Assembly (NCBI RefSeq): GCF_003334785.1
Contig: NZ_QOWV01000016.1
Origin: Escherichia coli
GTDB lineage: Bacteria > Pseudomonadota > Gammaproteobacteria > Enterobacterales > Enterobacteriaceae
Direction: 5' to 3' (one strand)
DNA length: 64,000 nucleotides
Shown here piece after piece: positions 7,472 through 56,314 of this stretch. Position numbers and translations under genes: made by a program. Positions within the stretch are counted from its first letter, which is position 1, and every line of letters begins with the position of its first letter. Below the pieces are notes generated by a model. It did no database searches. It saw only the letters and a program-made list of their open reading frames with translations, and was not told the DNA's origin.

Positions 7472-7554
7472 GCCTGATGCGACGCTTACGCGTCTTATCA
7501 TGCCTACGGGAACCTGACCGTAGGCCGGATAAGGCGTACACGCCGCATCCGGCA
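7472..7554. repeat. REP/BIME-type palindromic units downstream of aldB
   Basis: gcctgatgcgacgc...gtcttatcatgcctac and gtaggccggataaggcgtacacgccgcatccggca: the characteristic GCC(G/T)GATGCG / CGCATCCGGCA REP consensus halves. Confidence 0.7.
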
Positions 7555-9450: not shown

Positions 9451-10421
9451 TCTTCGCTTTCCGCCGCTTGTTCAGGCCGCAGTTGCTGCGACTGAGCAAG
9501 CTGGTGGCGAATTTCACGCAGCATTTCATCCAGCACATACTGGACCCGCCAGGGCTGGTATTCCCGTTTACGGAAGATAGCCACCAGATCCAGCCACCAT
9601 TCATAGGGTTGCTGAAAGCAGGGCACCAGCGTGCCGTCTTGCAGGTCGCTCTGCACACTTTTGTCTGGCGCAAACACAATCCCCAGGTGATTTCGTGCCA
9701 GCTCCAGCGCAGATTGCGTGTTGTCGCAAACGTAATTTCCCTTCACGCGATAATCCCGCACCTCTTTACTCCCGGCGACGTTGAAGCGCCAGATATTCGC
9801 GTCGTCGATCATCATCGAGTCGATCAAAATACAGGAGTGATGTTCGAGTTCGTCAGGACGGCTAATGGGATGTTTCTCAAGATAGCGCTGGCTGGCATAA
9901 GCGGTTACGGCATATTGGGTAATAAAACTGGCAACCAGCGATTCATCTTTTGGTGGAGCGTAGCTGATTAAAACATCACAATCATCAGGAAATTCGACGC
10001 CTTCATAAAAGGCATTACGCTCAAGATTGCAGGTTTTTAGCGGTAAGGTGATATCACCGATATCTTTAATTTTATCGATTACATGTTTGGATAAATAGGT
10101 AATTATGCCGGTTGGGGCGTAGATGGTGACCCGACCACGTTTCTCATGCTTATAATCTGCAATAAAATTATTAAGTTGCTCGTTTCTGTCCAGCATGTCG
10201 TTGATGTACGGTAACAGCGCGGTGCCAAAAGGTGTGAGCATCAGCTGCCGGGTGGTTCGGTCAAAGACTTTTAAACCCACTTTTGATTCAAAATCAGCAA
10301 GATATTTGCTGACGTTGGCCTGTGCGATGCCAAGTACAGTCGCGGCATGGCTGATATTTTCACTGGCAGCGATTACCGAGATAATTTTTAACTCCCGGTA
10401 CTTAAGTTGTAATTTTGTCAT
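9447..10421 (-). CDS. yiaU: LysR-family transcriptional regulator
   Basis: 324-aa ORF with N-terminal HTH ([27 protein letters not shown]); 3' end overlaps yiaV 3' end by 4 bp (convergent). Confidence 0.9.
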
Positions 10422-53679: not shown

Positions 53680-53708
53680 TGACGAGGGCGTATCTGCGCA
53701 GTAAGATG
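53680..53708 (+). promoter_or_regulatory. sigma70 promoter of tRNA-Pro
   Basis: -35 ttgacg (53680..53685), 17-bp spacer, -10 taagat (53703..53708), GC-rich discriminator gcgcccc, tRNA 5' end 12 nt downstream. Confidence 0.75.
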
Positions 53709-53719
53709 CGCCCCGCATT

Positions 53720-54053
<334 letters not shown>

Positions 54054-54055
54054 CG

Positions 54056-54140
54056 TAGGCCTGATAAGACGCGTCAGCGTCGCATCAGGCAAATGTGCCG
54101 GCCATTGTCGGATGCGGCGCGACCGCCTTATTCGACCTAC
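54056..54140. repeat. REP/BIME palindromic units
   Basis: gtaggcctgataagacgcgtcagcgtcgcatcaggc ... gccggccattgtcggatgcggcgcgaccgccttattcgacctac. Confidence 0.7.
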
Positions 54141-54706
54141 ACGACACACATTTCCCTGCCAAATTTGCGCCCCATATCTCACTATCCATTAACGGATTTG
54201 TGACAGAAACCATTGTCTTTTTTTATATTTGCTTAAATCTTTTTTTGCGTTACTTATGGCTGGCCCTGGCATTTTCCGCTGTGCGTTTTAGCGTTCATGG
54301 TATTAATCGCTCAGATATCCACCTTTTCCTCAGATTTTTTTCATTAAATGCATAAAACTTAATCACCAAATGTTGCTAAATATTAAGCTGATTGTTCTGG
54401 TCATGTTGGAGTAGCACAAATTTCTCTGCTGCAAATAGCTGTTTGAAGTTTTTTTAATCTTTGTTTGTGGATTCTCACCGTTGGTGTAAATCCCGGTTGG
54501 CTGTATTGACGTTTTCACATTCTGTTGACAGATTGTAGGTCACGAGGGGCATTTTATGGAGGATCCGCACTGTTACACTGATGTTAATTAGTACGGCATC
54601 CCCACCTCATAACGTTGACCCGACCGGGCAAAAAACAAAAAAGGTCAGGCAGCGACAACCCACTGCAAAGGGTTAAAACAACAAACATCACAATTGGAGC
54701 AGAATA

Positions 54707-56314
54707 ATGCGTATTTCCTTGAAAAAGTCAGGGATGCTGAAGCTTGGTCTCAGCCTGGTGGCTATGACCGTCGCAGCAAGTGTTCAGGCTAAAACTCTGG
54801 TTTATTGCTCAGAAGGATCTCCGGAAGGGTTTAACCCGCAGCTGTTTACCTCCGGCACCACCTATGACGCCTCTTCCGTCCCGCTTTATAACCGTCTGGT
54901 TGAATTTAAAATCGGCACCACCGAAGTGATCCCGGGCCTCGCTGAAAAGTGGGAAGTCAGCGAAGACGGTAAAACCTATACCTTCCATCTGCGTAAAGGT
55001 GTGAAGTGGCACGACAATAAAGAATTCAAACCGACGCGTGAACTGAACGCCGATGATGTGGTGTTCTCGTTCGATCGTCAGAAAAACGCGCAAAACCCGT
55101 ACCATAAAGTTTCTGGCGGCAGCTACGAATACTTCGAAGGCATGGGCTTGCCAGAGCTGATCAGTGAAGTGAAAAAGGTGGACGACAACACCGTTCAGTT
55201 TGTGCTGACTCGCCCGGAAGCGCCGTTCCTCGCTGACCTGGCAATGGACTTCGCCTCTATTCTGTCAAAAGAATATGCTGATGCGATGATGAAAGCCGGT
55301 ACACCGGAAAAACTGGACCTCAACCCAATCGGAACCGGTCCGTTCCAGTTACAGCAGTATCAAAAAGATTCCCGTATCCGCTACAAAGCGTTTGATGGCT
55401 ACTGGGGCACCAAACCGCAGATCGATACGCTGGTTTTCTCTATTACCCCTGACGCTTCCGTGCGTTACGCGAAATTGCAGAAGAATGAATGCCAGGTGAT
55501 GCCGTACCCGAACCCGGCAGATATCGCTCGCATGAAGCAGGATAAATCCATCAATCTGATGGAAATGCCGGGGCTGAACGTCGGTTATCTCTCGTATAAC
55601 GTGCAGAAAAAACCACTCGATGACGTGAAAGTTCGCCAGGCTCTGACCTACGCGGTGAACAAAGACGCGATCATCAAAGCGGTTTATCAGGGCGCGGGCG
55701 TATCAGCGAAAAACCTGATCCCGCCAACCATGTGGGGCTATAACGACGACGTTCAGGACTACACCTACGATCCTGAAAAAGCGAAAGCCTTGCTGAAAGA
55801 AGCGGGTCTGGAAAAAGGTTTCTCCATCGACCTGTGGGCGATGCCGGTACAACGTCCGTATAACCCGAACGCTCGCCGCATGGCGGAGATGATTCAGGCA
55901 GACTGGGCGAAAGTCGGCGTGCAGGCCAAAATTGTCACCTACGAATGGGGTGAGTACCTCAAGCGTGCGAAAGATGGCGAGCACCAGACGGTAATGATGG
56001 GCTGGACTGGCGATAACGGGGATCCGGATAACTTCTTCGCCACCCTGTTCAGCTGCGCCGCCTCTGAACAAGGCTCCAACTACTCAAAATGGTGCTACAA
56101 ACCGTTTGAAGATCTGATTCAACCGGCGCGTGCTACCGACGACCACAATAAACGCGTTGAACTGTACAAACAAGCGCAGGTGGTGATGCACGATCAGGCT
56201 CCGGCACTGATCATCGCTCACTCCACCGTGTTTGAACCGGTACGTAAAGAAGTTAAAGGCTATGTGGTTGATCCATTAGGCAAACATCACTTCGAAAACG
56301 TCTCTATCGAATAA
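54707..56314 (+). CDS. dppA: dipeptide ABC transporter periplasmic binding protein
   Basis: 535-aa ORF with signal peptide, recognised; SD ggag at 54696..54699. Confidence 0.95.
   Translation: MRISLKKSGMLKLGLSLVAMTVAASVQAKTLVYCSEGSPEGFNPQLFTSGTTYDASSVPLYNRLVEFKIGTTEVIPGLAEKWEVSEDGKTYTFHLRKGVKWHDNKEFKPTRELNADDVVFSFDRQKNAQNPYHKVSGGSYEYFEGMGLPELISEVKKVDDNTVQFVLTRPEAPFLADLAMDFASILSKEYADAMMKAGTPEKLDLNPIGTGPFQLQQYQKDSRIRYKAFDGYWGTKPQIDTLVFSITPDASVRYAKLQKNECQVMPYPNPADIARMKQDKSINLMEMPGLNVGYLSYNVQKKPLDDVKVRQALTYAVNKDAIIKAVYQGAGVSAKNLIPPTMWGYNDDVQDYTYDPEKAKALLKEAGLEKGFSIDLWAMPVQRPYNPNARRMAEMIQADWAKVGVQAKIVTYEWGEYLKRAKDGEHQTVMMGWTGDNGDPDNFFATLFSCAASEQGSNYSKWCYKPFEDLIQPARATDDHNKRVELYKQAQVVMHDQAPALIIAHSTVFEPVRKEVKGYVVDPLGKHHFENVSIE

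Follow-up and report, generated by a model that had tools for sequence, protein, structure and literature searches.

The control region upstream of dppA in Escherichia coli: intergenic repeats, conserved AT-rich DNA and a leader with a GcvB target

Gene order and repeats between proK and dppA

The analysed window (the whole stretch of DNA, 64,000 nt in length) comes from a K-12-like E. coli, and the part considered here extends from the tRNA gene proK across a long non-coding spacer to dppA. Several E. coli chromosomes match the segment 53600-54800 with 100% identity, and their annotation runs in the order eptB, tRNA-Pro, RtT sRNA and dppA; in the MG1655 counterpart, the annotated features are dppA, proK and eptB only. 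Coordinates were converted according to the formula MG1655 position = 3762412 - p, where p is the position in the window. Across 53700-54800, one SNP separates the window from MG1655. It is located at 54465, within the conserved region upstream of the promoter, with T in the window and G in MG1655.

The spacer between proK and dppA is 910 bp long (53797-54706) and contains, in this order, the proK terminator with the RtT repeats, a BIME made of two REP units, ~400 bp of AT-rich DNA, the dppA promoter and a leader of 165 nt. The features and their coordinates are presented in Table 1. An initial annotation of this DNA, made from the sequence, had described a dppA upstream region of about 650 bp. 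The long non-coding spacer is confirmed, but the length has to be corrected, the smaller value resulting from the fact that the described region begins after the RtT repeats. These repeats, which the initial annotation did not mention, explain part of the length of the spacer.

Table 1 Features of the proK-dppA region (positions in the window; a dot stands in the strand column where no strand is assigned)
Feature	Position	Strand	Basis
proK, tRNA-Pro(CGG); left boundary of the spacer	53720..53796	+	ARAGORN; Rfam tRNA, 60.7 bits; MG1655 annotation
Terminator and RtT repeat region	53797..54054	+	Repeat search; Rfam RtT; RefSeq 'RtT sRNA' annotation in E. coli
proK terminator hairpin	53803-53829	+	Repeat search
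BIME, two REP palindromes in opposite orientation (~54058-54091 and ~54107-54137)	54058..54137	.	Rfam naRNA4/REP
Conserved distal block, with promoter-like GTGACA-18-TATATT at 54200-54229	54197..54330	.	18-genus alignment; promoter scan hit
Promoter and promoter-proximal block	54411..54541	+	56% invariant columns, 18 genera
dppA 5' untranslated leader, 165 nt	54542..54706	+	5' end (-165) of the E. coli dppA::gfp insert
71-nt 5' leader fragment, RNA 3' end at -95	54542..54612	+	Term-seq
Hairpin with 17-nt A-rich loop GGGCAAAAAACAAAAAA at 54626-54642, candidate Hfq distal-face site	54613..54654	+	MFE fold; covariation
Small hairpin AACCC/GGGTT adjoining the CA tract	54657..54674	+	Folds; some genera only
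CA-rich tract AAAACAACAAACATCACAA, ACA motifs at 54678-80, 54681-83, 54685-87 and 54690-92	54675..54693	+	Sequence
Shine-Dalgarno (SD) sequence GGAG	54696-54699	+	Invariant in 58 leaders
dppA ORF, 535 aa, start ATG 54707-54709	54707-56314	+	Annotated dppA

The repeat search revealed a 108-nt exact direct repeat (53778-53885 = 53946-54053, spacing 168), whose first 19 nt form the end of tRNA-Pro, and the Rfam family RtT (RF00391) matches 53831-53964 with 101 bits. The RtT locus is 168 bp shorter in many E. coli genomes and carries no RtT annotation in them; given this difference in length, one RtT unit is missing there. The RtT copy number at this locus differs between E. coli strains.

The REP palindromes reported in the initial annotation are real. 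Rfam naRNA4/REP matches 54058-54137 with 69 bits on the minus strand and 51 bits on the plus strand (gathering score 59.5), the same segment folds with -44.6 kcal/mol (z = -4.3 vs shuffles), and another copy of the REP unit is present in the window at 7472-7507, where the chance expectation is 0. A match restricted to the REP was also found elsewhere in E. coli. The two units are paired GC-rich imperfect palindromes of ~35 nt that are opposed to each other, extragenic and repeated in the genome, which are the properties of REP/BIME elements. In comparison with known REP/BIME systems and RtT systems located downstream of tRNA genes, both the repeat structure and the Rfam naRNA4 and RtT matches are typical here, with nothing distinctive. 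The REP pair and the RtT repeats are common intergenic repeats of E. coli, which lengthen the spacer and, in the preferred explanation, take no part in dppA control.

The promoter and the conserved AT-rich DNA

Downstream of the REP pair, the GC content is 0.29-0.46 over 54138-54541 (0.29-0.39 over 54197-54541) vs 0.51 in the window. An AT-rich promoter-like zone had been proposed near 54480..54560, and this location turned out to be roughly right, given the low GC content and a published transcript start that falls behind a recognisable pair of hexamers. In the E. coli dppA::gfp fusion of Urban and Vogel, the insert has the transcript start, -165, as its 5' end (PMC1807950); this start corresponds to A54542. 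Placing the hexamers from this start gives a -35 element TTGACG (54506-54511), a 17-bp spacer and a -10 element CAGATT (54529-54534), the latter with 3/6 matches to the consensus. A generic promoter scan returned no score for the TTGACG-17-CAGATT site because its -10 element is weak. The segment 54502-54539 is entirely invariant across 18 genera, and the block 54411-54541 can be aligned even in Serratia, Pantoea, Cedecea and Shimwellia. Transcription would start at A54542 from a sigma-70-type promoter combining a good -35 with a weak -10 element, and would yield the 165-nt leader.

The question arises whether the AT-rich DNA that separates the REP pair from the promoter is merely a neutral, functionless spacer that arose from repeat insertions. 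Such an origin would agree with the finding that none of 5423 E. coli genomes annotates any feature there, and that the DNA shows no Rfam match, no conserved ORF and no conserved RNA fold. Its conservation points in the opposite direction. In the 18-genus alignment, invariant columns make up 40% of 54197-54330 and 56% of 54411-54541, compared with 7% of the synonymous dppA sites and 2% of the 47 bp adjoining the BIME. Moreover, homology to other genera of Enterobacteriaceae in cross-genus BLAST has a sharp onset (at ~54190-54210, close to 54197) and extends to the ATG. We consider a neutral origin unlikely against this contrast. The AT-rich DNA is for the most part conserved and not filler, a point absent from the initial annotation.

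The distal block, 54197-54330, is a single-copy sequence present in 5423/5426 E. coli genomes, in which it is unannotated, and no paralogous copies of it were found in E. coli. Several candidate functions were considered. A small ORF of 11 codons (ATG 54256..TAG 54291) was rejected: its start is lost in E. albertii and one Enterobacter, it is frameshifted in Pseudescherichia, and its third positions are conserved. A structured RNA was rejected as well: the forward strand folds with -5.65 kcal/mol and shows no covariation, and the reverse strand folds with -1.32 kcal/mol. Inspection by eye against the consensus sequences of CRP, FNR, sigma-54, PurR, Cra, PhoB, Lrp, IHF, ArcA and DnaA gave nothing convincing in the block. 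Since it contains neither a conserved ORF nor, on either strand, a conserved RNA fold, protein-DNA recognition looks like the source of the constraint. The block is located 210-345 bp upstream of the start at A54542 and begins with the conserved promoter-like GTGACA-18-TATATT. It may be a second, distal dppA promoter, with a start at ~54236 and a leader of ~470 nt, or else a platform for further regulators. Thus, ~345 bp of conserved, unannotated DNA sits upstream of a heavily studied promoter.

An A-loop hairpin and a short RNA in the dppA leader

In the leader, the hairpin at 54613-54654 was found in the same place in 44/44 independently folded Enterobacterales leaders (43 loci and the window), with differing stem sequences. 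RNAalifold gave no structure for the broad alignment of 58 sequences, owing to the gaps in it, and covariation was scored on a cleaner MAFFT alignment of 40 leaders that has a named structure. In this alignment, 82.8% of the cells of the 10-pair helix are paired, and 7 pairs are changed on both sides. The covariation score was reached by 0/500 shuffles, and slid controls were 20-46% paired; this support is good but not independent, because the structure was derived from those same sequences. The loop contains an (ARN)4 stretch at 54631-54642, and 2-4 consecutive ARN repeats are present in 40/40 related loops, whose median length is 18 nt with 62% A; a range of 14-19 nt is given for the A-rich loop. 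No Rfam family covers the hairpin, and no paper mapping it was found. More generally, neither the hairpin nor the distal block was found in the papers, annotations or Rfam families checked.

Published Hfq binding concerns the leader as a whole. The Salmonella dppA fragment -163..+73 binds Hfq at <=50 nM (PMC2515195), and the dppA leader, which binds Hfq ~10x more tightly than GcvB does, enters into a ternary complex with GcvB (PMC4104026). Judged by its composition and covariation, the A-rich loop at 54626-54642 is probably a docking site for the Hfq distal face. Hfq would dock there, ~35 nt upstream of the pairing site, and, as a landing pad, the hairpin may account for the strength of dppA as a GcvB target. 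The A-loop hairpin thus suggests where Hfq sits on the model dppA mRNA.

A short RNA ends directly in front of this hairpin. Term-seq in MG1655 revealed an RNA 3' end at 3707800(-), which corresponds to 54612 and is strong in two conditions (PMC7815308 supplement); it lies one base before the A-loop hairpin and defines the 71-nt 5' fragment listed in Table 1. In the same data set, the end has a Rho score of 1.09 ('No') and a low intrinsic-terminator score (PMC7815308 supplement). The first 31 nt of the fragment are 68% invariant across genera. The fragment is probably a trimmed decay product; nevertheless, an RNA of this abundance may be more than that. Two SD-like G-rich motifs are present in it, and these can pair with a C-rich segment ~55 nt downstream. 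A possible leader ORF starting at ATG 54556 was rejected, as the T of this ATG is kept in only ~30% of genera.

Taken jointly, the proposals that the distal block is a distal promoter or regulator platform, that the A-loop hairpin is an Hfq landing pad and that the 71-nt RNA is more than a decay product form a tentative picture, and we rate the chance that all of it holds as somewhat below even.

The CA-rich tract as GcvB target and presumed enhancer

The CA-rich tract, the SD sequence and the ATG lie exactly where the initial annotation had placed them (AAAACAACAAACATCACAA at 54675-54693, GGAG at 54696-54699, ATG at 54707), and the tract had been read as an element of the type targeted by the small RNA GcvB. 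This target is well established in the literature. GcvB represses a dppA::gfp fusion of E. coli, with its 5' end at -165, by 3.2-fold, and by 1.6-fold in an hfq deletion (PMC1807950). In both E. coli and Salmonella, dppA is a verified R1 target, for which RIL-seq, CLASH and MAPS counts are high (PMC9299463), and the E. coli gcvB-dppA site has been tabulated as -41..-8, CAAAGGGTTAAAACAACAAACATCACAATTGGAG (PMC3415461 supplement), which corresponds to 54666-54699 of the window. GcvB-dppA is used in the literature as a model class I pair, and in Salmonella dppA is subject to repression by a further sRNA, ManS.

To obtain a pairing prediction, the GcvB sequence was taken from MG1655 gcvB (2942696-2942901). 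Whole-molecule RNAduplex of GcvB against the leader produced a meaningless full-length duplex and was replaced by a comparison of R1 with 30-nt windows. The best R1 site within 54055-54760 is the CA tract. In the core duplex, GcvB nt 63-82 pair with 54677-54695 through 19 bp (17 Watson-Crick and 2 G-U pairs) with -22.1 kcal/mol and one bulged GcvB base, G75; when these 29 nt were shuffled, 0.65% of the shuffles attained this energy, as did 1% of 29-mers drawn at random from the window. Changes of 4 nt made in published work did not suffice to disrupt the pairing (PMC4104026). The pairing site ends 1 nt before the SD sequence and 12 nt before the ATG, the tract contains a 10-nt exact seed to R1, AACATCACAA, and it is unpaired in both the MFE and the centroid folds of the leader. 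The reading of the tract as a GcvB target is thus borne out by predicted R1 pairing at exactly this position as well as by the published site and the published repression.

On the scale of the entire window, the energies are less discriminating. When every 30-nt window of the 64 kb is considered, with both strands included, the tract reaches only z = -3.3, with many GC-rich coding sites lower, and it falls outside the top 15 of the 64 kb whether sites are ranked by energy or by energy and accessibility. Pairing energy alone does not single out the tract in 64 kb, which is a limit of prediction for a G/U-rich sRNA; an outstanding energy is no defining property of GcvB targets. Exact 10-nt GcvB seeds are not rare by themselves, with 7 hits at six loci vs 2.9 expected, and the dppA tract is the only one of the six that directly precedes the SD sequence and start codon of a long ORF. 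Other exact R1 complements of 10-11 nt are located at 9972, 16220 (minus strand), 25323, 17529 and 9670, in ORFs or away from start codons, and are probably chance matches.

Could the tract itself be a chance low-complexity run with a coincidental match to GcvB? The G/U-rich R1 does pair with many sequences, as the six seed loci and the many lower-energy sites in the window illustrate. To assess the conservation of the tract, a degenerate pattern derived from the conserved dppA coding sequence YCSEGSPEGFNP was used, which yielded 120 loci; 66 of these had an ATG at the E. coli distance and sufficient upstream sequence, and 61 of the 66 belonged to Enterobacterales. At least 3 ACA motifs were present in the region -35..-8 in 56/61 Enterobacterales leaders, with a median of four, and the tract holds its place before an invariant GGAG. 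Outside Enterobacterales it is absent: the same region contained 0 ACA motifs in four Thalassospira and 1 in Marinomonas. Two reduced symbionts had 1 and 2. Random 28-mers from the window contain a mean of 0.31 ACA, and just 0.13% of them contain four. The exact order of the tract varies between genera, while its CA-richness stays. The position before the SD sequence and ATG, the 19-bp duplex with an energy equalled by 1% of random 29-mers, and the conservation all indicate that the tract is more than chance, and a coincidental match is further contradicted by published experiments (PMC1807950, PMC9299463, PMC3879156, PMC3415461), so that we give this possibility practically no credence. In two insect-associated bacteria, a Pantoea symbiont (MAG) and Arsenophonus nasoniae, dppA is kept and the CA tract upstream of the SD sequence is lost.

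The Salmonella work adds a second role. There, the dppA target contains four ACA motifs in 15 nt; deletion of this 15-nt segment lowered expression by 96%, and randomisation of the four ACAs lowered it >100-fold (PMC3879156). GcvB was proposed to act in Salmonella by masking this ACA enhancer (PMC3879156). The E. coli tract likewise has four ACA motifs within 54678-54692, and the near-identity of the two sequences suggests that it, too, is an ACA-type translation enhancer, a function that the initial annotation did not mention. GcvB repression through the leader is demonstrated in E. coli, and the enhancer mutagenesis and footprinting are from Salmonella. The primary footprinting paper is reportedly that of Sharma et al. 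2007, with the footprint obtained in Salmonella.

One might suppose that the tract is mainly a GcvB-independent enhancer, whose ACA motifs favour 30S or S1 binding, and that GcvB pairing is secondary. Removal or randomisation of the ACAs nearly abolishes Salmonella dppA expression whether GcvB is present or absent (PMC3879156), and a tract whose order differs among genera while remaining CA-rich throughout would also fit. Enhancement is nevertheless compatible with control by GcvB, which is proposed to act by masking that very enhancer (PMC3879156), and the literature documents both in vivo chimeras and GcvB repression of the leader fusion from E. coli (PMC1807950, PMC9299463). A subordinate role for GcvB pairing is, in our opinion, very unlikely.

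The preferred explanation joins both functions. The single-stranded CA tract 5' of the SD sequence would raise translation initiation through its four ACA motifs, as shown in Salmonella. The G/U-rich R1 of GcvB, aided by Hfq, would pair with the tract over the 19 bp of the duplex predicted base by base; this pairing would mask the enhancer and block 30S binding, and DppA synthesis would therefore fall when GcvB is high, i.e., under amino-acid-rich conditions. We are highly confident that the region as a whole controls dppABCDF of E. coli both transcriptionally and post-transcriptionally, with the CA tract as GcvB target and enhancer. The GcvB target in the dppA leader is already known and ordinary. 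GcvB-dppA is a textbook model of one sRNA controlling many amino-acid and peptide transporters, and finding it again adds nothing new; what the tract does illustrate is that a real regulatory element can be recognised from sequence alone.

Among known systems, the anti-sRNA AgvB of EHEC prophages carries a dppA-like CACAACA, through which it pairs with GcvB R1 and contends with the dppA leader for binding at the Hfq distal face (PMC4104026). AgvB is absent from this region and, unlike the dppA mRNA leader, is a decoy RNA. The other R1 targets oppA, yifK, sstT, cycA, gltI and argT resemble dppA in having a C/A-rich site near the RBS, with the R1 target consensus CACAACA. The oppA site spans the start codon (-18..+21), whereas the dppA site lies wholly upstream of the SD sequence (PMC3415461 supplement). 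A further close system is dppA with GcvB R1 in Salmonella Typhimurium (Sharma et al. 2007; Yang et al. 2014), which involves the same gene with a leader length of 163-166 nt. It likewise combines four ACA motifs in 15 nt beside the SD sequence, R1 pairing just upstream and tight Hfq binding; the E. coli tract differs from that of Salmonella in a few bases, and the predicted E. coli duplex has the bulged G75.
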